64,000 nucleotides of DNA, from the sequence record NC_023593.1, one strand, 5' to 3'. This document shows, one piece after another, positions 2,322 through 52,625 of the stretch. This DNA is from Escherichia phage KBNP1711. The position numbers and the translations under genes are program-made. A model generated the notes under the pieces. The model was not told where the DNA came from, ran no database searches, and saw only the letters and a program-made list of their open reading frames with translations. How positions within the stretch are numbered: the first letter of the stretch is position 1; each line of letters starts with the position of its first letter.

Positions 2322-3863
2322 ATGTCATTAGATAAAGAAGTATACGAAGCTCTCACTGGAGATAAACTAACAGTAGAGGAAAAGAAGCATCTGTTAGGAA
2401 TATTAAAAGAGCGAGATACATGGAGAAAGTATAATAAGATTCTAGCTTTCAAAGCATATGACTTTCAGAAGAAGTTTTATGAAGCAGGACTGAAGCACCG
2501 CTTTAGATTCCTGTGTGCAGCTAACCGTGTTGGTAAATCTTATAGTGAGGCATACGAGTTTGCTTGTCATGTCACAGGTCGCTACCCAACTTGGTGGACT
2601 GGATACAAATTTAAAAGACCTATCCTTGCATGGGCAGTCGGGATTACAGGGGATTCCACAAGAAAGGTTTTGCAAAAGGAATTGTTTGGCACACCTATTG
2701 GAAAAGATACAGATCTTATTGGTACAGGTGTGATTCCTCGTGATGCTATTGTCATAGACACAATAGAACGAGATGGTAACAAGCTTCAGATCGTACAAAT
2801 CAAACATCAAAACGAAAGGGGAGAGTTTGACGGCCTGAGCACATTAGAATTCCGTTCAACCCAACAGGGTGAACATACATTGATGGGTGCTACAGTTGAT
2901 TATATTTGGCTGGATGAAGAAGATCCTTATGAAAGTATGGCAATCTTTTCTCAGTGTGTAACACGTACACTCACAACTAAAGGTTTAGTAACGATTACAG
3001 CTACACCAGAGAACGGTTTAACAGAGCTGGTGGACAAGTTTATGAAAGGTGAAGGTGATGCAGATACAGGTTCTCTGTATTTCCAGAATGCTTCTTGGTG
3101 GGATGCACATGTTGACTTAGGTGGTCACATCTCAGACAAGGATATAAAGGATATGACCGAAGGTATTCCTGCTTGGCAGCTAGAGATGCGCTCCAAAGGT
3201 ATGCCTCTGTTGGGTTCAGGTTTGATTTATGATGTATCTGATGACTCAGTTAAGTGTGAACCATTCGATATCCCTGATACATGGAAACGTGTGTGTGCGG
3301 TTGATATCGGTATTGATCACCCTACTGCTGCTGTTTGGTCGGCTTACGATGCTAACACTGATACTATTTACATCTATGACTGCTATAAAGAAGGTGGTTA
3401 CACTCCAGCTTACCATGCTCCGGCTATTAATGGTCGAGGACAGTGGATTCCGGTGGTGTTACCTCACGATGCTGACAACCTTGAGAAAGGTAGTGGTTCT
3501 TCAGTGGCCCAATTCTATAGGAATGCAGGGGTTAACGTACAATCTGAGACCTTCTACAACAAGATTGGAATGGATGGTAAAAAGAACTTCTTTGTAGAGC
3601 CGGGAATTACAGATATTCGTGAACGTATGATGTCAGGTCGATTCAAGATCTTTAATACTGCTTCCTGTGCTAAACTCTTTGAAGAAAAAGCACGATACCA
3701 CCGTAAGGTTGGTAAGATTGTTAAAGAACATGATGACTTGATGGATGCGATGCGTTATTCTGCTTGCTCCGTAACACATAGAGGTCGTAGTAAACACGAT
3801 GCTAGCTACGGAAGTTCGTCGCTTTATCAAGAAAATATTAACAGATGGAATTCGAGTTACTAA
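2322..3863 (+). CDS. terL: terminase large subunit
   Basis: Walker A-like 'AANRVGKS', nuclease-domain acidic residues; GGAGGAAG RBS before ATG 2322 (track ORF starts 2250). Confidence 0.85.
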   Translation: MSLDKEVYEALTGDKLTVEEKKHLLGILKERDTWRKYNKILAFKAYDFQKKFYEAGLKHRFRFLCAANRVGKSYSEAYEFACHVTGRYPTWWTGYKFKRPILAWAVGITGDSTRKVLQKELFGTPIGKDTDLIGTGVIPRDAIVIDTIERDGNKLQIVQIKHQNERGEFDGLSTLEFRSTQQGEHTLMGATVDYIWLDEEDPYESMAIFSQCVTRTLTTKGLVTITATPENGLTELVDKFMKGEGDADTGSLYFQNASWWDAHVDLGGHISDKDIKDMTEGIPAWQLEMRSKGMPLLGSGLIYDVSDDSVKCEPFDIPDTWKRVCAVDIGIDHPTAAVWSAYDANTDTIYIYDCYKEGGYTPAYHAPAINGRGQWIPVVLPHDADNLEKGSGSSVAQFYRNAGVNVQSETFYNKIGMDGKKNFFVEPGITDIRERMMSGRFKIFNTASCAKLFEEKARYHRKVGKIVKEHDDLMDAMRYSACSVTHRGRSKHDASYGSSSLYQENINRWNSSY

Positions 3864-4006
3864 ATACAAGTGTTTCTAGTGAGGGTTAAGTCAGTTATTG
3901 CCCTCATTAGCTTATGGTATCAGCATACTGACATGCTGACGTGAGGGGGAGTGCAACGGCCCCTCTTAGTAATTCCTTCCCAGCTATCAACCGAGGGAGA
4001 GATTAG

Positions 4007-6250
4007 ATGGCTAAGAAGAATTTTAGTGAAGATGTATTGGATGAACTGCGCGTTGATCTTCAACGTCGATTCAACTACGCTCAAGGCTACGTAGATATCG
4101 CTGTAAAAGGCTATGCTCGTGAAGCTTGGGAATATTTTTATGGGAACCTTCCTGCTCCAGTTACAGCTGGTAGTTCTAGTTGGGTCGATCGTACAGTATG
4201 GGAATCAGTAAACGGTACACTCCAAGATATCATCAACGTATTCTGTTCAGGTGATGAAGCAGTAACGTTTGTAGCGGACAACCAAGCAGATAGTGATGCA
4301 GCTGACGTAGCAACTAAGCTCGTTAACCAAATCCTGTTGCGTGATAATCCGGGATACAATGTTATTTCCTCAGCGGCACAAGAGTGTCTTGTCACTCGTA
4401 ACTCTTTTATCAAATACTATTGGGATGAACAAACCTCCACTCAGACAGAAGAGGCAGAGGGCGTACCTCCAGAAGCACTTGCTGCATATGTGCAGGGATT
4501 AGAGGCTGGCGGTCTTGAAGATTTAGAAGTATTTACCACTGATAATGATGACGGTACAGTGGACGTCAAGGTTAACTACAAACAAACAGTAAAGCGTGTG
4601 AAGGTTGAGTATGTCCCTTCCGAACAAATCTTTGTAGATGAACATGCAACCAGCTTTGCTGATGCACAATATTTCTGTCATCGTGTACGTCGTTCTAAAG
4701 AAGATCTCGTAGCTATGGGTTTCCCTAAAGATGAGATTGAAGCTTTTAACGATTGGACGGATACGATGGACACTACCCAATCGACTGTTGCTTGGTCACG
4801 TACTGACTGGCGTCAGGATATAGATTCAGATATCGGTGTAGACACTGATGATATCGCTTCTATGGTTTGGGTTTATGAACATTACATCCGTACTGGTGTA
4901 CTGGATAAGAATAAAGAAGCAAAACTCTATCAGGTTATTCAAGCAGGTGAGCATATTCTCAGTTGTGAAGAAGTAACCAGTATTCCGTTCGTAACTTTCT
5001 GCCCATACCCAATTCCGGGTTCATTTTATGGTCAGTCTGTCTATGACATTACGAAAGATATCCAAGATTTACGTACCGCACTGGTTCGTGGTTATATTGA
5101 TAACGTAAACAATGCTAACTATGGTCGTTATAAAGCGATTGTAGGGGCGTATGACCGTCGCTCTTTGCTAGACAACCGTCCGGGTGGCGTTGTTGAAATG
5201 GAGCGTCAGGATGCGATTGACTTATTCCCATACCATAATCTACCTCAGGGTATCGATGGTCTGTTGGGAATGTCTGAAGAATTGAAAGAAACTCGTACAG
5301 GTGTCACTAAGCTCGGAATGGGTATTAACCCTGATGTGTTTAAGAATGACAACGCCTATGCTACTGTAGGTTTGATGATGAATGCAGCTCAGAACCGTCT
5401 CCGTATGGTATGTCGTAACATTGCACATAACGGTATGGTTGAGTTAATGCGTGGAATCTACAACCTTATCAGAGAGAATGGTGAAACCCCTTTACAGGTT
5501 CAAACACCTCGTGGAATGGTTCAGGTAAATCCAAAACAATTACCACCTCGTCACAATTTACAAGTTGTTGTAGCTATCTCTCCTAATGAGAAAGCAGAAC
5601 GTGCACAGAAATTGATTAGTCTGAAACAGCTGATTGCTGCTGACCAACAGTTAGCACCTCTCTTTACTCTGGAGCAAGATCGTTATATGACTGCACAAAT
5701 CTTTGAGTTGATGGGAATTAAGGATACTCATAAATACTTAATGCCTCTTGAGCAGTATCAGCCACCGCAGCCGTCTCCAATGGAAATTCTCCAGCTGGAA
5801 ATGACTAAAGCTCAGGTTGAGAACGTACAGGCTTCTTCTCAGAAGATGATTGCTGATGCATTCGACCAGCGTGAACGTACTACATTCGAACAGCAGAAAG
5901 CTGCCGATGAGTTCAGTCTGAAGCAGGAAGAGTTGCAGTTCAAGCAAGAAAATGCAGCAGACGTAATGACCTTAGAGAATCGTAAGGAAGACAATAGTGC
6001 TACTCTGGAACAAGCTAAACACAAGTTGTCTCTTCTTCAGCAGCAGGTTCGTCAGTATGAATCCGTACTGAAAGAACTACAGATGGTCATGGACCATCAG
6101 GTTGACCAAGAGAAGATTGTTGCTCAAGCACAAATTCAGGATAAGACTTTGGAACTCCAAAAGAAAGAGTCAAATGTAACTAAGAAAGACCAACAGAAGA
6201 CTCTAAAAGATTCTAGGATTCCTAACAGACGTCTTGGTAGTAAAAAATAA
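4007..6250 (+). CDS. portal protein
   Basis: 747-aa ORF directly after terL with coiled-coil C-terminus; GAGGGAGAG RBS. Confidence 0.75.
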   Translation: MAKKNFSEDVLDELRVDLQRRFNYAQGYVDIAVKGYAREAWEYFYGNLPAPVTAGSSSWVDRTVWESVNGTLQDIINVFCSGDEAVTFVADNQADSDAADVATKLVNQILLRDNPGYNVISSAAQECLVTRNSFIKYYWDEQTSTQTEEAEGVPPEALAAYVQGLEAGGLEDLEVFTTDNDDGTVDVKVNYKQTVKRVKVEYVPSEQIFVDEHATSFADAQYFCHRVRRSKEDLVAMGFPKDEIEAFNDWTDTMDTTQSTVAWSRTDWRQDIDSDIGVDTDDIASMVWVYEHYIRTGVLDKNKEAKLYQVIQAGEHILSCEEVTSIPFVTFCPYPIPGSFYGQSVYDITKDIQDLRTALVRGYIDNVNNANYGRYKAIVGAYDRRSLLDNRPGGVVEMERQDAIDLFPYHNLPQGIDGLLGMSEELKETRTGVTKLGMGINPDVFKNDNAYATVGLMMNAAQNRLRMVCRNIAHNGMVELMRGIYNLIRENGETPLQVQTPRGMVQVNPKQLPPRHNLQVVVAISPNEKAERAQKLISLKQLIAADQQLAPLFTLEQDRYMTAQIFELMGIKDTHKYLMPLEQYQPPQPSPMEILQLEMTKAQVENVQASSQKMIADAFDQRERTTFEQQKAADEFSLKQEELQFKQENAADVMTLENRKEDNSATLEQAKHKLSLLQQQVRQYESVLKELQMVMDHQVDQEKIVAQAQIQDKTLELQKKESNVTKKDQQKTLKDSRIPNRRLGSKK

Positions 6251-6496: not shown

Positions 6497-7578
6497 TGCC
6501 ACAAGATAATTATATTGACCCGAACGATTTTAAATCTTTCCTCCAACTGGATGACCTGAAAGGTTCCTTCAAAGAAGAACTTGGTCGATTAGAATCTGAA
6601 CAAGAGCCAGAAGTGGACATTGACGAAGACTTCCCTGAATCTCAGGCTGATGACTTTGACATTGACACCGACCTTCTCGGCAAAGGCGATACGCTAGCGT
6701 TCGAAGATGAAGATGGTTGGGAAGATGAAGAAGAAACGGAAGACGAAGCAGATGAGACTGATGATGTTGTCGAGGATGACGAATCAGATGAGTCCAGTGA
6801 TGCTGAACACGAAGAAACAGCTGACGAGGACGTAGACTACGAAGACGGAGACGTCTACGATGTTGACTACGAAACCGTTATCACTCTTCCGGATGGTCGT
6901 GAAATGACAATCGAAGAACTGTCTAACGGCTACTTAACTGGTTCAGCGATGACCGAACGAGAAGAAACTCTCCAACGTCATGTTGAAGCTTTTGAAGAAC
7001 GTGTTGTAGGTTTGAAGGATGTATTAGATTTGGCGTCTCTGGAAGCAGACCGTGTAATTGAAGATTACAATGGCTTTGATTGGGACAAGCTCGCACAAGA
7101 AGATCCTCAGGCTTATGTAGAAAACAAACGTTTCTTAGAAAAATATGTAGCTCGTCGTCAGCAGCTGGAAGCAGCTCAGGCTAAGGCTAAACAGGAAGCG
7201 CAAGCTAAAGAAGAAGCTGTATTCCGCTCTAAGAGTGCTGAATGCGTTGCTATTCTGAAGCGTGAGATTCCTAATTGGGATGAGAATCTGTATCAGGGAC
7301 TAATGCAATATGCAATTGATCTCGGTGCTACAGAGGAAGAAGTATTGCGGGAGAATCGTCCGTCTATCTTCTTGGCTTTACACAAAGCATACCAGTTTGA
7401 TAAAGGTAAGCAACAGGTAATGGCTAAGATTAAACGTCCAGGTGCTCCACGAAAAGTCGTGAAGTCTGATGCTTCTAAAGCTCGTACTTCCGGTAAGCCA
7501 GACAACGCTAAGGTTGCCAAGGCATTTGCAGAGGGTCGTATTCGTCATGAAGATGCATTTAAGTATCTCGTAGATTAA
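6496..7578 (+). CDS. putative scaffolding protein (highly acidic)
   Basis: D/E-rich low-complexity N-half; position between portal and capsid genes; AGGAG RBS. Confidence 0.55.
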   Translation: MPQDNYIDPNDFKSFLQLDDLKGSFKEELGRLESEQEPEVDIDEDFPESQADDFDIDTDLLGKGDTLAFEDEDGWEDEEETEDEADETDDVVEDDESDESSDAEHEETADEDVDYEDGDVYDVDYETVITLPDGREMTIEELSNGYLTGSAMTEREETLQRHVEAFEERVVGLKDVLDLASLEADRVIEDYNGFDWDKLAQEDPQAYVENKRFLEKYVARRQQLEAAQAKAKQEAQAKEEAVFRSKSAECVAILKREIPNWDENLYQGLMQYAIDLGATEEEVLRENRPSIFLALHKAYQFDKGKQQVMAKIKRPGAPRKVVKSDASKARTSGKPDNAKVAKAFAEGRIRHEDAFKYLVD

Positions 7579-7619
7579 TCGACAAATTTATTTTTTAATA
7601 GTATAGGAGCTAACATAAC

Positions 7620-8690
7620 ATGGCAAATCCAACTTTATTTGTATCTTACGACCAGAACGGTAAAAAACTTTCCTTCGCTAACTGGATCTCTGTTCTGTCC
7701 CCGCAAGACACTCCGTTTGTGTCTATGACTGGTAAAGAGTCTATTAACCAGACTATTTTCAGCTGGCAGACCGACGCACTGGCAGCAGTTGACGCAGCTA
7801 ACGCACACATCGAAGGCTCTCGTGCTGATGATGGTGAAATGCAGCCGACTGTAATTAAATCAAACGTTACTCAGATCCTGCGTAAAGTTGTTCGTGTTTC
7901 TGATACCGCTAATACCACCGCTAACTACGGTCGTGGTCGTGAACTGATGTATCAGCTGGAGAAGAAAGGTAAAGAGATCAAGCGTGACCTCGAAAAAATC
8001 CTTCTGTCCGGTCAGGCTCGTACTGACGTACTGGCTGATCAGTATCTGACTAACTCAGCAGCTGACCCGGCTCAGGTTGGTAAGAATGACGCTCATGCAG
8101 CTCGTAAGACTGGTGCTTTCCAGTTCCTGTGTGCTCACGGTGGTCTGACTGGTGCTTCTGGTTCTCAGGTTGTTGATAAGACTAAGAACGGTCCTGCTGA
8201 CCCGGATACTGGTGCAATCACTGTTAAAGTTGCACAGAATGCTTCTAACCCGACCACTAACATTGGTTTTGATGAAGCTGATATCTTTGATATGACCCTG
8301 CAACTGTACACCGCTGGTTCTGAAGCAGATATCATCATGATCAACCCTGCTCATGCTAAGATCTTTGCTGCTCTTCAGGAAAACTCTGTTGGTTCTCGTC
8401 AGCGTATCTTTGAGAACACCAAGCAGTTCATCTACGAAGTTAATAGCATCACTGACCCGCTGGGCCAGAGCTACAAAATCATCGTTAACCGTTGGATGCC
8501 TGCTGATGCAGTATACTTCTTCCGCAGCGCTGATTGGACGCAGATGGTGCTTCGTGCACCAAAACGCACGGAATTAGCGAAGGATGGTTCTTACGAGAAG
8601 TGGATGATCGAAATGGAAGTTGGTCTGCGTCACCGCAACCCGTATGCTTCTGGCGTACTGTTCACCGCTGCGGGAAAGGCGGGAGCGTAA
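7620..8690 (+). CDS. major capsid protein (short form)
   Basis: Abundant-protein codon usage, AGGAG RBS, position after scaffold; ends 10 nt after slippery site. Confidence 0.75.
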   Translation: MANPTLFVSYDQNGKKLSFANWISVLSPQDTPFVSMTGKESINQTIFSWQTDALAAVDAANAHIEGSRADDGEMQPTVIKSNVTQILRKVVRVSDTANTTANYGRGRELMYQLEKKGKEIKRDLEKILLSGQARTDVLADQYLTNSAADPAQVGKNDAHAARKTGAFQFLCAHGGLTGASGSQVVDKTKNGPADPDTGAITVKVAQNASNPTTNIGFDEADIFDMTLQLYTAGSEADIIMINPAHAKIFAALQENSVGSRQRIFENTKQFIYEVNSITDPLGQSYKIIVNRWMPADAVYFFRSADWTQMVLRAPKRTELAKDGSYEKWMIEMEVGLRHRNPYASGVLFTAAGKAGA

Positions 8691-9217
8691 CAGTTGACAG
8701 TGTAACTGTTAGTCCTGCGTCTGTTGCTAGTCTTCAGACGGGGGCTACTCGGCAGTTCACTGCAATCGCGGAGAAAAGTGATGGTTCTACCGAAACAACT
8801 GGCTTTACTTGGTCAGTGACAGGAGGTGGTTCTATCACTCAGTCTGGTTTGTATACTGCTCCGAGTGCGGCTCAATCCACTGATGTGTCCATTACTGCAA
8901 CATTAGAAGATGTTTCTGGTACAGCAACCATTTCTGAAATTGTTGCTCCTGCTCCTACCATCGTATCTCGTGGTCCAATCGCAGATAAGGTAGGCGGTTC
9001 TACTACAGCTTTCACTACAATGTTTACCGTTACCAATTCAGCTGCTTCTAACTATACTTTCGTAGTAACTCCTCCGGGAGCTGGTTCTGTAAGTGCTGCC
9101 GGTCTTCTGACCTTGGCTGATGCTGCTTCTGGTGCTGTAAGTGTTAAAGCCACCCACTCTACGGTTTCGAGTGTTACGGCTACTTGTGAATTTACAGGTG
9201 TAACTCCAAAAGAGTAA
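7620..9217 (+). CDS. major capsid protein, extended form with C-terminal Ig-like (Big_2-like) domain via -1 frameshift
   Basis: Track ORF 8534..9217 is in the -1 frame and continuous across slippery heptamer 8672-8678. Confidence 0.6.
8672..8711 (+). promoter_or_regulatory. -1 programmed ribosomal frameshift signal
   Basis: Heptamer G_GGA_AAG, 9-nt spacer, 8-bp hairpin 'taacagtt gacagtgt aactgtta'. Confidence 0.6.
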
Positions 9218-9225
9218 AACTATAA

Positions 9226-9256
9226 AGGCTGCCTTCGGGTGGCCTTTTCTTGTTTT
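9226..9256 (+). terminator. rho-independent terminator after capsid gene
   Basis: 'aggctgcc ttcg ggtggcct' hairpin followed by T-rich run. Confidence 0.55.
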
Positions 9257-9278
9257 AAGACCTATACAAGCCAGTGTG

Positions 9279-9287
9279 TAATGTATA
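9279..9287 (+). promoter_or_regulatory. TAATGTATA motif (candidate phage promoter element)
   Basis: Exact motif 34 nt upstream of ATG 9321. Confidence 0.45.
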
Positions 9288-9320
9288 TTCTTTGTCTACA
9301 TACAACTAGGAGGACAATCT

Positions 9321-10067
9321 ATGGCGATGCCAGACGTTCAAAACCCAATTAATACCTACGGATGGCTTAAGAAGGCTGTGTCCCTCTGGGCTGACCGTGA
9401 CGACCCTGAATTTGTTAATCAAATTCCAAACTTTATTAACTTTGCAGAAAAGGAAATCTACCGTAATTTACGTATTCCTCCTCTGGAAAAAGAAGTCTAT
9501 TTAGATATTAAAGATGGTGTGGCTTTTATTCCACCAGATTACTTAGAAGCTCAGTGGATGATGAGATCTAAAGATGGTTTAATCTTCCGTGTAACCTCTC
9601 TCGAAGAAGTGGATTGGCTCAAACGTAATAACTCAGTCAACCCAACCAATTGGAATCAGGGAGAAGTTGTCTTTGCTCGTTTGGGTAGCCGGTTTATCTT
9701 CTACCCTGCAATTGAAGCAGATACTCCAGTTTACCCTGATGATGGCAGCCCTGAGATTCCAGCAGACAATGCGGTTATCCTCAGCTATTATGCTGACCCA
9801 CCAGAGTTTTGGGAAGATTCAGACACAAGTGCTATTCTTACTATCGCTCCAGAGCTTCTATTGTATTTTGCTTTACGTCATGCTTCCTTGTTTGTTCAGG
9901 ACGATAATGCAGTTCAGAAGTGGTCTGCTTTAGGTAAAGCCATTCTTGATGAAGTTGTTGAGCAGAGTAAGAAAGCAGAATACTCAGGTTCACCTTTAGT
10001 TATTCCTAACACGATTAGCCGTCTACATAGCTCTCGTGAAGTATATGGGATTCGTCGTTTTAGATAA
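9321..10067 (+). CDS. virion structural protein (possible head-tail adaptor/tail tubular protein)
   Basis: Position after capsid; strong GGAGGA RBS; no diagnostic motif. Confidence 0.4.
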   Translation: MAMPDVQNPINTYGWLKKAVSLWADRDDPEFVNQIPNFINFAEKEIYRNLRIPPLEKEVYLDIKDGVAFIPPDYLEAQWMMRSKDGLIFRVTSLEEVDWLKRNNSVNPTNWNQGEVVFARLGSRFIFYPAIEADTPVYPDDGSPEIPADNAVILSYYADPPEFWEDSDTSAILTIAPELLLYFALRHASLFVQDDNAVQKWSALGKAILDEVVEQSKKAEYSGSPLVIPNTISRLHSSREVYGIRRFR

Positions 10068-16685: not shown

Positions 16686-19600
16686 ATGGCGTTATACCCT
16701 ATAAAATCACTTGGGGCTATCGGTGTTATCGCTGATCAGGCACCAACTGATTTAGCACCTAACGCTTTCACCAACGCTATGAACGCTCGGTTTGTTGAGC
16801 AGAGAGTTTTTAAGACGGGGGGCAATGCCCCTCTTTCTTACGTGGAAGAAGACAAAGATCTGACTCCACTCTCTTTTGTCTCCATGCCTTTCGATTATTA
16901 TAGCGCAGGAAATAGCTTCCTTGTAGTAGGTACAGATAAGAAGTTATATAAACTGACAGATGAAAGCTTAACCGATATCAGTCGTAAAGTTGCTACGGTA
17001 ACTAAGAAAGCTTCTGCTATCATAAAGATCTATCCAGTGGTCTCAAGGATTGTTCCTAAAGAGAGCACTGTCACAATGAACTTTAACCAGACAAAAGAGT
17101 TAGAAGTTCAGGTTTTTCCAGAGGATGCTAATAATGCCAATCTGACTTGGGAAGTAAGTAACCCTTCTTATGCCAGTATTGCAGTAAATCCTACAGATTC
17201 TAAAAAAGCCACCCTTACTACGTTGTCTACAGAAGGAACACTGTCCATTACTGTTTCCACTGAAGATGAATCTGTGACAGCTCAAATCTCCGTTAACATT
17301 GTTGATGGGGATACGGGTATCTTCTTGAGTCAAGACACAATCACAATTCGAAGAGGTGGTACAACAACTCTTACTGCTATCTCAGGTAAGACTCCTATCA
17401 CTTGGATTAGTAGCAATGGTGGTGCTTTGTCTGTGACACCTAATGCCAATACACTAACTACTGTTCTCAATGCCATGGGAGAAGGAACTTTTACTGTTAC
17501 AGCTGATAATGGCTCTAAGTCTGCTACCTGTACAGTTAATGTGATACCTCAGATTGATTCTATTTCTCTGAGTCAGACAGATGTTCAGATGGATAGAGGG
17601 ACTCAGTATGTTCTAACTGCAACAGTCAATCCTGCTGATGCTCCTAATAAAGCAATCACTTGGACTTCCTCTAATCCTAATATTGCTACAGTATCAGGGA
17701 CAAGTACAGAGGCTACAATTACTGGACTTCTGGCTGGGTTTACAGAGATTACAGCAGTAACAGAGGAAGGTAGTCGTTCAGCTGTTTGTACTGTTCGTGT
17801 CAACCTAGCAGGTAGAATGCTAAATACCAGAAGTCTAGCGATGGCTGCTAGTGCACCTCTAGTAGAAGAGTTCAAAGAGGAAGAAGAACCAGTTGTACAG
17901 AATGAAGAAGTTGTTTACTTCATGTCTGACTCTATGGGAATTGATACCTCTGGCATGGCTGAAGGCAACAACTTCTTTGACTACTCTAACGTATTCGATA
18001 TGGAAGGTTTTGCTCGTGCTGCGGAGAACTCAAGAGCTGTTCCTCTGACAAATGTGACATTAGATATTGTTGAAGCTTCTCTAGATGTAGGTGAAGAGAT
18101 TGTCATAACTGCTACAGCAGCTCCAGAAGGAGATTACTCTTATCAGTGGGTTGTTGATAAAAGTGGTTATGTTTCTACTACCTCTACAACTGGTAGGTCT
18201 TTGAAACTTACAGCTGTTCGTAAAGGCGAGATTAAAGTTACATGTACGGCGAGTCAGATGACTCAAAGAGATTACGATGCTTTTGATGATTACCCTTGGT
18301 ATCATGCAGTAATCTCTAACTGTGCAGTAGCGACAACTCACTATGAAACTCCTCAGGTTAAAGAATTCGAATCTGAATACTTTACAGACCTTCCGGGATG
18401 GGGTGAACAGACAGTTGTTGATGGTGACGGAAACCCTTCTGTTCGTAAATTTAACTGGAAGTGCGAAAGGGTTAGAGCTTTTAACAACAGGCTATTTGCT
18501 CTGAATATGAGAGAATCTAATGCCTCTGGTGTTACCACTCATTATCCTTTACGTCTTCGCTGGTCTAACTTTGCGAATGAGAACAAGGCTCCTACTTTGT
18601 GGGATGATTATGCTTACGACCGACTGACAACTTCTGATCTTTCAGCGAACATTGTTGGACAGACTGAAGCTCTTGAGAATGGTTATGCAGGATATATTGA
18701 TCTGGCTGACTCTAATGGTAGTTTGATTGATGTTCTCCCTTTGAAAGATTACTTATTTGTTTACACCGAGTTTGAAACCTACATTGGTTCTCCTACTAAC
18801 AACACATACCAGCCTCTGATGTTTAAGAAGCTGTTTAATGATTCAGGTATTCTTGCTCCTGAGTGTGTGGTTGAAGTAGAGGGTGGTCACTTTGTTGTAA
18901 CCCAGAACGATGTGATTCTTCATAACGGTGCATCTAAGAAATCTATTGCATCTAACCGTGTCAAGAACATGCTCATTAATGAAGTGTGTTTGGTAAACCC
19001 TCTAGCGACTAGAGTTCACTTGCACCAAGATAAGAAAGAGGTTTGGGTCATGTATGTTGGGCCGGGAGAGCCGAAAGAAAGTTTTGCTTGTACAAAGGCT
19101 GCGGTCTGGAATTACGAGTTTGACACTTGGTCTTTCCGTACTATCCCTTATGCTCAGTGTATTGGTCTTGTAGATCCTCCTGTTCTCGAAAGAGGTCCAG
19201 TGTGGACTGACTTCCAAACTATCACTTGGGATGACCCTGCTATTGATAAGCTGGTGTGGAGAAAGGATGCAACTAACTTCCGTCAGAGAATTACTATCGT
19301 AGGCTCTTTCTTAAGGGGTTTCTATCAAGTAGATGTTGGTGCTTTGGATTATTTCTATGACAGAGCGAATGACAAAATAATAGAGCGTCCTCTGGAAATG
19401 AGGTTAGAGAGAACGGGGATTGATTTTGATAACGTTACTAACGAATGGAATCAAAAACATATCAACCGATTCAGACCTCAGACTACAGGTTCTGGTACGT
19501 ATATCTTTGAAGCTGGAGGTAGTCAATTCTCTAATGAGTATGGTCACAACCACACAACTAAGAGTTATACGATTGGAGTTGATAGGCACGTAGCTGTGAG

Positions 19601-19706
19601 ACTGAACCATCCATACCTATTCTATAATGTTATAGATAATGATGTTAACAGTAACGCAGCCATAAATGGGCTGACAATAGAGTTTAATGTTGGCGGTCGA
19701 AGATAA
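16686..19706 (+). CDS. large virion protein with three Ig-like (Big_2-like) domains
   Basis: Three ~80-aa repeats with 'TLT...V.P..A....W.SSN...A.V' pattern. Confidence 0.6.
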   Translation: MALYPIKSLGAIGVIADQAPTDLAPNAFTNAMNARFVEQRVFKTGGNAPLSYVEEDKDLTPLSFVSMPFDYYSAGNSFLVVGTDKKLYKLTDESLTDISRKVATVTKKASAIIKIYPVVSRIVPKESTVTMNFNQTKELEVQVFPEDANNANLTWEVSNPSYASIAVNPTDSKKATLTTLSTEGTLSITVSTEDESVTAQISVNIVDGDTGIFLSQDTITIRRGGTTTLTAISGKTPITWISSNGGALSVTPNANTLTTVLNAMGEGTFTVTADNGSKSATCTVNVIPQIDSISLSQTDVQMDRGTQYVLTATVNPADAPNKAITWTSSNPNIATVSGTSTEATITGLLAGFTEITAVTEEGSRSAVCTVRVNLAGRMLNTRSLAMAASAPLVEEFKEEEEPVVQNEEVVYFMSDSMGIDTSGMAEGNNFFDYSNVFDMEGFARAAENSRAVPLTNVTLDIVEASLDVGEEIVITATAAPEGDYSYQWVVDKSGYVSTTSTTGRSLKLTAVRKGEIKVTCTASQMTQRDYDAFDDYPWYHAVISNCAVATTHYETPQVKEFESEYFTDLPGWGEQTVVDGDGNPSVRKFNWKCERVRAFNNRLFALNMRESNASGVTTHYPLRLRWSNFANENKAPTLWDDYAYDRLTTSDLSANIVGQTEALENGYAGYIDLADSNGSLIDVLPLKDYLFVYTEFETYIGSPTNNTYQPLMFKKLFNDSGILAPECVVEVEGGHFVVTQNDVILHNGASKKSIASNRVKNMLINEVCLVNPLATRVHLHQDKKEVWVMYVGPGEPKESFACTKAAVWNYEFDTWSFRTIPYAQCIGLVDPPVLERGPVWTDFQTITWDDPAIDKLVWRKDATNFRQRITIVGSFLRGFYQVDVGALDYFYDRANDKIIERPLEMRLERTGIDFDNVTNEWNQKHINRFRPQTTGSGTYIFEAGGSQFSNEYGHNHTTKSYTIGVDRHVAVRLNHPYLFYNVIDNDVNSNAAINGLTIEFNVGGRR

Positions 19707-49011: not shown

Positions 49012-50292
49012 TTAATCTGTGATACTGTCGCTTTCGTCAACCCAGACTGGATTATTAATCTGTCCTAAACGACGAGCTGATGTTTCGTTAATAGAGTTAA
49101 CCCCTGCTGTGCGAGGGTTTGTGTACCACGGTCGGACTATGCTACCCGACTGAATTGCTTGGTTTGCTTCTACATGCCACCTGTTTGATACCGTGTTGGC
49201 TTCAAAGTTACCACCCGCTCCACCACTGATAGGCACAGCTTGAGCTGGTTGATTTACTCGGTTAGTTCCTGCCCCAAAGGCTGCTGCAAATTCAGACACA
49301 CGTGCACTAAATGAAGAACGAGCACGCTGAGGAGGTGATATATCATTTCGTGTATCTACTGCACGAGGCATAGCCCAAGTATCATCTGTTGAGATATCAG
49401 GGGTAGGCTCTTGCTCTAGAGGTTGAAGATTAGCTGTCCATTGACTATTCAGTATACGATAGAAATCTGCACCATAACCACTTCGGATAACATCCTCTCT
49501 GACACCAAAGAAGCGACTGATATCCCCACCGATTCGGGCTAGTTTGTCATTGTATGCAGGTATGATTATTCCACCCTCTGTCACTAAATCAGAGACACGA
49601 CTTGTTGTAAGTGGTGAAGTGATCCAACAATAATAATCAGTAATGTGACCATCGTATCCGAAGAATGCAATCTCTGCATCAGGCCATTTCTTGTGGACAT
49701 ATGCCACTTCACGGTTAGAACAAACAGGGATTGCACCTGTTTCAGTCATTGCATAGAAGCCGTCAGAAGAGAACCAAAGTGAATCTAGTGCTAAGAATCC
49801 ACGACACACGCTCGGGAAAGTAGCAGCCAGCGCCCCAAGTGAGGTAGGTTCATTGAACATTAACTGAATCTTTGCACTCTGATAATTAATCTCTAGGATA
49901 TCTACAAAATTCAAAGAAGACCCAGGGGCATATTGATTATTACTTCGTCCAATATCCTGCTCAATGAGAAGAGATCTTGTTTCAACACCATGAGCCTCTG
50001 CCCACTCTTTGAAATCTTCAAGGAACAAGCGAGCCTTAGCTCGCCACATCGACCGATCAGTTACAGACTGTCTCGGCAATCCACCCTCTGTAGTGATGAG
50101 AAAGATATCAATGTCGTGAGGTTCACGCGTCTGAAAGATTGCATCCCTAACAGCACCACCTGCAATGATAGGGTACACACCATCAGGGATTAAACGGTTT
50201 GCAATCAACTCGTTAATTAACGTAAGACCAGACACAAGCTGCGGACTATCATCAATCCGACGACGAATTAGTGCATTAGGGATATTATACAT
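49012..50292 (-). CDS. nucleotidyltransferase (CCA-adding/poly(A) polymerase head-domain type)
   Basis: 'IIAGGAVRDAIF...HDIDIFL' matches the 'GGxVRD...DxD' active site. Confidence 0.5.
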   Translation of the reverse strand: MYNIPNALIRRRIDDSPQLVSGLTLINELIANRLIPDGVYPIIAGGAVRDAIFQTREPHDIDIFLITTEGGLPRQSVTDRSMWRAKARLFLEDFKEWAEAHGVETRSLLIEQDIGRSNNQYAPGSSLNFVDILEINYQSAKIQLMFNEPTSLGALAATFPSVCRGFLALDSLWFSSDGFYAMTETGAIPVCSNREVAYVHKKWPDAEIAFFGYDGHITDYYCWITSPLTTSRVSDLVTEGGIIIPAYNDKLARIGGDISRFFGVREDVIRSGYGADFYRILNSQWTANLQPLEQEPTPDISTDDTWAMPRAVDTRNDISPPQRARSSFSARVSEFAAAFGAGTNRVNQPAQAVPISGGAGGNFEANTVSNRWHVEANQAIQSGSIVRPWYTNPRTAGVNSINETSARRLGQINNPVWVDESDSITD

Positions 50293-50841
50293 TTACATTT
50301 TCCAATATAAAGATGGGGGGTCATTTGGGTCAAAGTTTGCAATATGGCAAAGATATTTATAAACCTTAACCGTTAAGTTTACGTCCTGTTCACAATAAGT
50401 AAACATGTCCTCTGTAAAGGCATCCCATGCTTCTTCCTGTTCACCGTAATCACCCTTAAGCTCTTCTAAGAACTCACCCCATTGCTTTAAGCCATGACCT
50501 CTTGGGCCATGTCTAGGGTCGCCTTTCGGATACTCAGGACTGTCACCAATACGGTCAGGTTTAAGATACCGACTCAGACATAAAGTGTCTAGGACGTTGA
50601 ATTTGTAATCAATCAAATCAGGGTACATCTTCTTCAGAGCACATAAGTCGAAGTCAATAACGTTATGACCTACAACAACATCAGCCTCTGTAAGTTTCTT
50701 GATACCCTCTTCAATCTGGTGAGGGCGAAATCCCCACCGTTCACCAGTTGATATATCGAAGATAAAGATACACCATACGTTTGTGATATTGTCGTACAGT
50801 GCATCACTCTCAATATCAAATGCGTAGACTTTCTTTACCAC
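50293..50841 (-). CDS. DnaQ-like 3'-5' exonuclease
   Basis: Exo I 'YAFDIESD', Exo II-like '[11 protein letters not shown]'. Confidence 0.55.
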
Positions 50842-52625
50842 GGGCTTTTCTCTCCATCTTGAGCAAGAAGTGATGCTGCATCCTCTCCATTTGTCAGCGA
50901 GAATGGGTTTTCTTCATCAATTTCATGATCTTCACGCTCAAGCAACCGTCCCGTCTCTCCTACATACTTCGTATAGCACACCCCTGTTTGTCCATAGTTA
51001 CGCTCTTTGAGGAGTCGTATAATGGAGAGGTTCTTAGCCAGACCATCTGCTTGTTTGTCACGTTCAAAACCGATGATACATTGACACCAACGCATAAGAG
51101 AACGAGAGCCAGTAAACTGTACCTCTCGAACCTGACCACCTTCTTCATGAGGTGCACCACCTGCCGGAGCATTGAGGTGAGATAGTACGAATGCTGTGAA
51201 GTTTAATTCTTGACACATACCAGCAAGCTCGGAAGCAATCTTACTGATTTCAGTGTTAATCTCTGAAGGTGTTAAATGAGACACCAGAGCGGTAATGTTA
51301 TCAAGGATGATAAACTTACACTGGTTTTCAACAACCCAGAAACGGATACACTGTTTAATGTCGGCCCATTCATTCTGACCAAAGTTATCATAGAGGAAGA
51401 ATTTATCTGCATATCGAAGAGCTTCGTTACGCAATGTATCTTCATCATACTCAACATCAGGTCTATGGAAAGGAATAGATGCTGACTTGCCTGCAATGTT
51501 CTTAACGGACATTCCGACCTTCTCTTCCAAGAAGAATCCGCCACCATTAAAACCATGCTCAAGGCAAAGCCAAGCAACCAGTTCATGTGCAATCAATGTT
51601 TTACCAGAGCCTACACCACCACCAATTGCTACCATTTCTCCCCAACGAATACCGTAGGTCATCTCATTAAGAGTTTTCCACGGGTATGGGATACCCCACT
51701 CTGCTTTCTTCAGAGCATCATCTAAGCAATCAAAAACAGTTACAGCACCAGCTGGAGATTCCCGCTTCGCTGAATATTTAAGAATGTTAAACAATTCCTG
51801 ACCACGACCAGAGAGGAGCATATCATTCGCATCTTTAAGCTCTTTCTCAACACCGTTGTACTGGAAAGAACCTTTAGGAATACGAGCAAACTTCACATGT
51901 GGGAACAGAGCACGCCCTTTGGTAAGAGCAATCTCACCAGCATCATCGTTGTCCATACAAAGGACAACCTCTTCAAAACCATTCAAGAACTCACGGTTGC
52001 GAGACAGAACGGAAGAAATCGACCCTGCACCGAACGGTAAAGAGACACACGCTGGTTTAATGTTTGTTGCATTTGTAAAAGCTGTAAGAACGTGGAAGCC
52101 AGACATGCAAGACAAGGGGTCTTCAAAGATGAAGAGCTTCTTATTATACACATCTCCACGTTTAGCCTGTGCCATACCAAACAAATCAGCTTCTTTCACA
52201 CTACCGATGTAATAAAACTTTTTACTATCAAGTAGTTTAACCTCGTAACCGACAATGTTTCCGTCACGTTCACGAGGAAAGAAGTAACTGTCCGGTGTCT
52301 GACCATCAGTTTGACTGAGACCAATACGACATTCAAAACGCTCTGATACAGCTTTAGGGATTAATCGACGAGTGAGTTCTCCTTGAGGTAACTCCAAGCA
52401 ATCATCCAAGACCTCTCGAAGTTCTTCAGGGGACAGCTCTTTCTTTTCATTTGGTGTAGGTGTCGTGCCTTTCTCAAAGACTTCGTAATTACCACACCGG
52501 TTACAACTACCCCACTCTTCACCGGATTCCTCATTACGGAAGAGAATCATGTGATTGTGGGTTTTATCACGACCATGAGAGATGCACTCCTTACAGCCTG
52601 TGTCTCCCAAAATGATCTTTGACAT
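50835..52625 (-). CDS. primase-helicase (T7 gp4-like)
   Basis: N-terminal Zn ribbon (CxxC...CxxC), TOPRIM 'MDNDDAG', Walker A 'GGGVGSGKT'. Confidence 0.75.

Follow-up and report, generated by a model that had tools for sequence, protein, structure and literature searches.

The stretch of DNA considered here is a window of 64,000 nucleotides (nt) from Escherichia phage KBNP1711 (NC_023593.1), a phiEco32-like (Gordonclarkvirinae) coliphage, and all positions are counted from its first letter as position 1. The element in question is the 3′ end of the major capsid gene, at which an earlier note on this DNA, made from its letters, had placed a programmed −1 ribosomal frameshift that would add an immunoglobulin-like (Ig-like) region to a subset of the capsid subunits. 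The open reading frame (ORF) at 7620–8690 matches the Pfam family SU10_MCP (E = 6e-77), no other Pfam family being matched by the capsid protein, and the protein also matches the structure of gp9 of phage SU10 (7z45_A; E = 1e-222). The surrounding genes follow the order portal, small ORF, scaffold, capsid, adaptor and fibre, and the adaptor gene is recognized by Pfam SU10_adaptor (E = 1e-29). The region 7620–9217 is matched by 124 phage records, with ECBP2 as the top match (92%). In the zero frame the capsid protein ends in ...TAAGKAGA*, with its TAA stop codon at 8688–8690.

Counting of the codons from the ATG at 7620 verified the phase of the heptamer G_GGA_AAG at 8672–8678, which is separated from the capsid stop by GCG GGA GCG (9 nt). 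The heptamer meets the X_XXY_YYZ pattern, both tRNAs can re-pair on it, and Atkins et al. (2016) count it among the heptamers that shift most readily in E. coli. Heptamers of this pattern were counted in frame in the ORFs of at least 100 amino acids (aa) on both strands of the window. The 62 that were found have a median −1 extension of 3.5 codons, and only two are followed by more than 100 codons, namely the capsid site and one incidental case, in which the −1 ORF is a neighbouring gene with its own start. A Shine–Dalgarno-like stimulator upstream of the slip site (GGAGG, AGGA or GAGG), which is an optional feature of frameshift cassettes, is absent from 8650–8671.

After a −1 slip, reading continues as GGC GGG AGC GTA ACA GTT GAC..., giving the protein sequence ...TAAGK|GGSVTVDSVTVSP...; the trans-frame sequence ...TAAGK|GGSVTVD was confirmed, as was the earlier observation that the −1 frame stays open to 9217, the length of about 180 aa proving to be 179 codons. 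The predicted fusion product comprises 532 aa and 56.1 kDa, compared with 356 aa and 38.9 kDa for the short form, and the difference is 17.2 kDa rather than the approximately 19 kDa previously given. The fusion is predicted to contain the junction-spanning peptide TAAGKGGSVTVD..., in which the junction lysine is K353. Because trypsin cuts at this residue, the peptide AAGKGGSVTVD that had been suggested for mass spectrometry would not appear in a tryptic digest; the predicted tryptic peptide is GGSVTVDSVTVSPASVASLQTGATR, the N-terminus of which lies exactly at the slip, and the predicted chymotryptic peptide spanning the junction is TAAGKGGSVTVDSVTVSPASVASL. The ratio of nonsynonymous to synonymous substitution rates (dN/dS) in the −1 frame is 0.25 against phiEco32 and 0.21 against a relative from IMG/VR, compared with 0.6–0.97 in the other two frames, and these values indicate that the extension is under purifying selection. 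The only intrinsic terminator on the plus strand in 7400–9500 lies 3′ of the extension, and the Paul and SU10 records annotate a terminator at the same place. No tRNA genes, and no Rfam families at the gathering threshold, were found across 1–64000.

Instead of being reached by frameshifting, the Ig ORF could be a separate gene with its own start, the product of which would be a free decoration protein or a minor capsid protein. This is how the locus is usually presented: nearly all GenBank records list a 'major head protein' and an 'Ig domain containing protein' as two coding sequences (CDS), the SU10 cryo-electron microscopy (cryo-EM) paper treats gp10 as a separate gene, and ORF finders report 8534–9217 as a 227-aa ORF with a TTG start. 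However, a scan of all in-frame starts found no ATG, GTG or TTG in the −1 frame in 8601–8815. Of the in-frame starts, 8534 and 8600 sit 5′ of the slip site, inside a capsid gene that is heavily translated, and the next, GTG 8816, stands 46 codons into the extension in the middle of the first Ig domain, where it corresponds to the annotated start of ECBP2. No Shine–Dalgarno sequence occurs at a working distance before any candidate start of the Ig ORF (every in-frame ATG, GTG and TTG). Independent expression from 8534, which had been raised in the earlier note, is thus unlikely, since this start is inside the capsid gene and has no such sequence. Furthermore, the annotated starts vary from record to record, phiEco32 using a GTG 8 codons past the slip site and others an ATG or GTG 33–46 codons in, and the start codons of relatives are not conserved, being GTA and AAA in KBNP1711; it is the annotated GTG of phiEco32 'gp12' that is GTA here. 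Later starts would remove the first β-strands of domain 1. Homologous proteins in databases have 108–252 aa and start at many different places, as would be expected if gene callers guess a start. In addition, fusions of capsid and Ig domains in a single frame exist in phages 7-11 and A24. On this evidence, a separately initiated gene is improbable.

The extension was modelled with AlphaFold2 using 20 sequences as two β-sandwich domains, with a mean predicted local distance difference test (pLDDT) score of 96.6. Among solved structures, Foldseek ranked the Big_2 tandem of Leptospira LigA first (E = 1.5e-11) and also matched a Big_2-CBM56 structure (E = 5.6e-5); among viral models, it matched the 894-aa frameshift product annotated as a capsid protein in Paul, as well as the Salmonella phage 7-11 capsid protein. 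The Big_2-like Ig fold that had been read from the sequence is therefore borne out by the β-sandwich model and the LigA match, but it consists of two domains and not one, and the Pfam Big_2 (PF02368) score of the KBNP1711 extension is under the gathering score (20.9 versus 22.8 bits; E = 3.5e-4). Orthologous extensions exceed that score, with 23.4–34.5 bits. A sequence search of the extension against solved structures gave a marginal match only (E = 0.14). Domain 2 is present in one to four tandem copies in relatives, and the repeats are visible in the KarlSchell and Paul extensions.

Big_2 domains are also found elsewhere in the window. The 1006-aa protein at 16686–19706 is a homologue of the SU10 nozzle protein gp17 (PDB 7z47_G; E = 0) and contains three Big_2 stretches, in agreement with the earlier count. 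The possibility that the Ig domains of the capsid extension are recent copies from the nozzle protein was considered and rejected (BLASTP E = 0.75, not significant); judging from this comparison, the two sets of domains share only the family and are not recent copies of one another.

The slip site is shared by the close relatives of KBNP1711. All 15 Kuravirus-like sequences read GCTGCGGGAAAG 12–15 nt before the capsid stop, and the spacer between the slip site and the hairpin that follows it is 9 or 12 nt. All but one have a −1 extension of 178–545 aa, made up of one Big_2 domain, one to four second domains and, in some, a further C-terminal domain; KBNP1711 has 179 aa, phiEco32 178, KarlSchell 459, and Paul and YF01 about 540. 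The corresponding genes (phiEco32 gp11 and gp11-12, Paul, YF01 gp8, SU10 gp9/10) resemble those of KBNP1711 in having an SU10_MCP capsid protein and GGGAAAG in the same phase, and in systems of the phiEco32/Paul type the extension likewise begins with a Big_2 domain and is followed by a terminator, whereas its length and domain content differ. In the type represented by Proteus phage Privateer, GGGAAAG stands directly before the stop, whereas it stands 9 nt before it in KBNP1711. The GGGAAAG capsid frameshift is already known, having been published for the orthologues in phiEco32, SU10, Paul, YF01 and Privateer, so that the feature in KBNP1711 is correct but not new. In GenBank, CPT_Paul_009/010 of Paul are annotated as a joined CDS, to which the note 'Frameshift at GGGAAAG' is attached. 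The Privateer paper describes this signal as well, along with two capsid bands, and detected the minor form in virions by mass spectrometry; the YF01 paper attributes two isoforms to the Kuravirus-like group as a whole and notes that the −1 frame of SU10 contains a premature stop.

All of the sequence-level predictions of a programmed −1 frameshift hold at this locus, and the orthologous site has been reported in five relatives. The long capsid protein of KBNP1711 is therefore, in our assessment, very probably made by −1 ribosomal frameshifting at 8672–8678. For KBNP1711 we infer the slip itself and its efficiency, the role of the hairpin, and the display of the domains on the outside of the head and their function along the following lines. 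One late mRNA would bear the capsid gene and the downstream Ig-domain ORF, and the AGGAG at 7605–7609 would be the single initiation site serving both capsid products. All ribosomes would begin at ATG 7620, and most would read through G_GGA_AAG and stop at the TAA to give the 356-aa protein. A minority would slip back by one base, with re-pairing of tRNA-Gly from GGA to GGG and of the only tRNA-Lys of E. coli from AAG to AAA, and would then read the −1 frame to 9217, producing a 532-aa capsid protein with two C-terminal Ig-like domains. The slip rate is probably raised by the hairpin, which lies 9 nt 3′ of the heptamer and would pause the ribosome. In the prolate head, the 532-aa form would be a minor, co-assembled subunit that displays Ig-like domains; these probably bind surface carbohydrates weakly, as has been suggested for other Ig-like domains of phages. 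The SU10 head is built of 715 capsid subunits (SU10 cryo-EM paper), and approximately 10% slippage is quoted for T3 and T7 (YF01 paper); by way of illustration and not of measurement, these figures would put some tens of long subunits in each head. The features of the locus are collected in Table 1.

Table 1. Features at the 3′ end of the KBNP1711 capsid gene and around it, in window coordinates.
Feature	Position	Strand	Basis or remark
Shine–Dalgarno sequence AGGAG	7605..7609	+	10 nt 5′ of the capsid ATG; read from sequence
Major capsid protein gene, zero frame, 356 aa, 38.9 kDa	7620..8690	+	ORF list, Pfam, structure match
Slippery heptamer G_GGA_AAG (GGGAAAG)	8672..8678	+	Codon phase counted from ATG 7620
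−1 frame extension, 179 codons plus stop	8678..9217	+	Open to the stop at 9215–9217
Spacer between slip site and hairpin, 9 nt	8679..8687	+	Read from sequence
Predicted extended helix (GCGGGA...UCCUGC) around the hairpin	8679..8718	+	Minimum-free-energy fold, 82 nt, −32.3 kcal/mol, z = −2.84
Hairpin TAACAGTT-GACAGTGT-AACTGTTA, perfect 8-bp stem TAACAGTT/AACTGTTA, 8-nt loop	8688..8711	+	Candidate frameshift stimulator
Ig-like domain 1 (Big_2 type), extension residues ~5–86	8690..8935	+	Pfam, AlphaFold2 model, Foldseek
Ig-like domain 2 (GGSTTAFTTMFT...NS type), extension residues ~94–176	8957..9205	+	Model, alignment
Intrinsic terminator, 10-bp stem, GC-rich core, T-rich tail	9224..9257	+	First terminator after the capsid gene

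The 9-nt spacer and the perfect 8-bp hairpin described earlier were recovered, the stem being an exact inverted repeat; the spacing lies within the 5–9 nt typical of canonical bacterial −1 frameshift cassettes. RNAfold adds a G–U pair to the hairpin and gives it −8.6 kcal/mol (z = −2.5), with 5 of 200 shuffled sequences folding as well. In the longer fold, an extended lower helix begins directly 3′ of the heptamer; a comparable lower helix is found in phiEco32, but in a different register. The base of the lower helix would be melted or covered by a ribosome on the slip site, so that only the upper hairpin is placed to act. Its six central pairs, AACAGT/ACTGTT, are invariant in 15 of 15 Kuravirus-like sequences and the loop varies in both sequence and length (8–11 nt), a pattern that fits a conserved structure. 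Two other structures were considered. A pseudoknot, in which CAGUG of the loop would pair with CACUG at 8757–8761, was set aside because the loop sequence varies in KarlSchell, Paul and L016, and the SU10 stem-loop of Mirzaei et al., which encloses the slip site itself, is reduced to approximately four weak pairs in KBNP1711.

Several observations weigh against the frameshift reading or the role given to the hairpin. The hairpin is short and AU-rich, no compensatory changes in the stem were seen among the 15 sequences, and the bases of the stem also encode the conserved strand VTVDSVTVS; owing to this overlap with conserved codons, the conservation of the hairpin could come from protein constraint alone. 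In addition, Ig density was not seen in cryo-EM of SU10 heads, and the SU10 mass-spectrometry table lists coverages of 78.1% for gp9 and 50.3% for '9+10', which fit peptides from the shared part alone and are thus not independent proof of a gp9–gp10 fusion.

The lack of Ig density in SU10 heads agrees with the stop in the published −1 frame of this phage. The hairpin region of SU10 (L006; KM044272, 4057–4081) reads TAACAGTAGACA-C-TGTCTACTGTTA, a perfect 25-nt palindrome of −19.2 kcal/mol, and contains one extra base relative to phiEco32, which produces a TAG in the −1 frame after 11 codons. Such a change has the appearance of a templated quasi-palindrome correction by which the long form was switched off, unless it is a sequencing artefact. 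The KBNP1711 −1 ORF might by analogy be a decaying remnant that is no longer usefully expressed, as appears to be the case in SU10, where the published sequence stops after 11 codons of the −1 frame and the heads are without Ig density. However, the KBNP1711 ORF is intact, under purifying selection and confidently modelled as folded, and the extension protein shares 99.4% identity with that of ECBP2, recent recombination appearing to have exchanged the cassette whole. Decay is therefore quite improbable in KBNP1711.

This exchange can be traced in the flanking sequences. KBNP1711 is 99% identical to KarlSchell_Bas89 on both sides of a segment that extends from approximately 8530–8640 to approximately 9342–9467 and is 99–100% identical to ECBP2, and which runs from the last part of the capsid gene, through the slip site, the 179-aa extension and the terminator, into the beginning of the adaptor gene. 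Compared with ECBP2, the synonymous substitution rate (dS) is 0.007 in the extension and 0.47 in the capsid body. KarlSchell_Bas89 has a 459-aa extension at the same place, and KarlSchell-type flanks around an ECBP2-type segment imply that the extension was swapped as a cassette. The sequence comparison places the left crossover in the conserved last 50 capsid codons, within approximately 140 nt upstream of the slip site.

More distant relatives in the comparison share 41–58% capsid identity with KBNP1711, and a scan of IMG/VR for homologous loci yielded 10 loci. Proteus phage P59 has G_GGA_AAG directly before TAA and a 169-aa −1 extension with I-set and Big_2 domains, and the IMG/VR contig L025 (3921–4055) has A_AAA_AAG and a 42-aa extension in the same capsid family. 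In coliphage PJNS034 (L013, 3885–4289) the heptamer is C_CCA_AAA, with a 132-aa I-set-type extension and a strong hairpin approximately 20 nt downstream. The slip site of Lactobacillus phage A2 is also C_CCA_AAA with a downstream stem-loop, the same heptamer as found in PJNS034. No canonical heptamer is present in the Lahexavirus-type phages, that is, Aeromonas phage LAh_8 (L009, 3905–4190) and contigs L020–L022 (~3905–4430). Their capsid genes share a conserved G_GUA_AAG that precedes the stop by one to two codons, and their −1 ORF is open across the stop for an extension of 90–171 aa containing an I-set domain or two Big_2 domains (E = 8e-35); in L020–L022, a GC-rich hairpin lies 6 nt downstream of G_GUA_AAG. 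Where the P-site match is imperfect, A_AAG is documented as a weaker −1 site (Atkins et al., 2016), and G_GUA_AAG in these phages apparently marks an unannotated frameshift, the LAh_8 record presenting the −1 ORF as a 'putative tail protein' that begins internally.

A further arrangement is found in Salmonella phage 7-11 and Cronobacter phage A24, which have no frameshift and have instead a second capsid paralogue in which the capsid protein is fused in frame to Big_2 domains. The tandem paralogues lie at 1982–2920 and 3001–4758 in 7-11 (L012) and at 2992–3930 and 4011–5096 in A24 (L011), the fused Ig-bearing members being 7-11 gp009 and A24 gp101. The pairs gp008/gp009 of 7-11 and gp102/gp101 of A24 are thus similar to the KBNP1711 system in capsid family and in comprising a short and a long Ig-bearing capsid protein, but here the two forms come from duplicated genes and no recoding is needed. 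A terminator is annotated between the two paralogues of 7-11 and might set the ratio of short to long forms by transcription instead of recoding. The in-frame fusions show that the covalent capsid–Ig protein is the product under selection. The other slip sites of the distant relatives, together with the fused paralogues, constitute new detail beyond the published frameshift, as do the recombinant make-up of KBNP1711 and the coincidence of the SU10 palindrome with the loss of its extension.

The variety of slip sites also bears on whether the long product could arise by slippage of RNA polymerase at the G3A3 run, giving an mRNA that is one base short, a route that yields the same protein and that sequence alone cannot fully separate from ribosomal slippage, but which is hardly credible here because productive bacterial transcriptional slippage uses long homopolymers, usually of at least seven A or T (established knowledge, reviewed in Atkins et al., 2016), compared with runs of 3 nt at this site, and because the relatives keep the X_XXY_YYZ phase and the A-site Lys codon while their heptamers differ (G_GUA_AAG of the Lahexavirus type being a partial exception), a signature of tRNA re-pairing.

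With ribosomal frameshifting as the preferred explanation, a tentative and rather doubtful further suggestion is that recoding may not be the sole role of the conserved 3′ end of the capsid gene: this region, which holds the slip site and the quasi-palindromic hairpin, may in addition serve as a joint for swapping and switching capsid display modules. This suggestion is based on the chimera in KBNP1711, on the variation at the junction, where relatives have domain 2 in one to four copies or other Ig families, on the loss in SU10, and on the at least four slip sites or gene duplication that lead to the same fusion in the wider group.

Comparable systems are known outside this capsid family. The earlier parallel with T7 10A/10B holds for the arrangement of a capsid frameshift, but T3 is the closer case, since the T7 extension is not Ig-like (Atkins et al., 2016). 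T3 gene 10A/10B has, like KBNP1711, a −1 frameshift near the end of the major capsid gene, a minor longer subunit and an Ig-like extension (Atkins et al., 2016; YF01 paper), whereas T7 also differs in its G_GU-type slip site and in needing a distant 3′ element (Atkins et al., 2016). The capsid family and the slip site of T3 and T7 differ from those of KBNP1711 according to their descriptions in the literature, so that these systems are analogues and not homologues. In Lactobacillus phage A2, the head protein (gp5A/gp5B) likewise gains an Ig-like extension through −1 frameshifting at the end of its gene (Atkins et al., 2016), but A2 is an unrelated siphovirus of a Gram-positive host with a heptamer different from that of KBNP1711. 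E. coli dnaX resembles the KBNP1711 site in its −1 heptamer ending in A_AAG, its single tRNA-Lys and its downstream hairpin (Atkins et al., 2016); unlike in KBNP1711, there is an upstream Shine–Dalgarno-like stimulator and a much stronger stem, and the shift truncates the protein.

With regard to annotation, the KBNP1711 capsid gene should be given two products, 7620–8690 and join(7620..8678, 8678..9217), and not a capsid protein and a free 'Ig domain protein', as most of the 124 related GenBank records still do by annotating two separate genes. Whether Ig-like domains are displayed on the prolate head depends on the long isoform; such display may affect adhesion to surfaces or mucus, and it matters where Kuravirus-like phages are used therapeutically or for capsid display. 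The occurrence of several slip sites, in-frame paralogues, cassette exchange and the loss in SU10 illustrates how firmly the pair of short and long capsid proteins is selected. The comparative pattern extends and does not overturn the published work, and a correct annotation for KBNP1711 is added to it.

A second frameshift candidate in the window was examined and rejected. The heptamer AAACCCA lies 69 nt 5′ of the stop of a DnaB-like helicase gene on the minus strand (50835–52625) and is followed by a 203-codon −1 ORF; however, it is a poor bacterial slip site, and the 3′–5′ exonuclease gene downstream starts at its own GTG, which overlaps the helicase stop. This exonuclease (182 aa, 50293–50841) is directly abutted on the same strand by a 426-aa ORF (49012–50292). 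If the latter is a polymerase domain, the DNA polymerase of KBNP1711 would be split into two genes.

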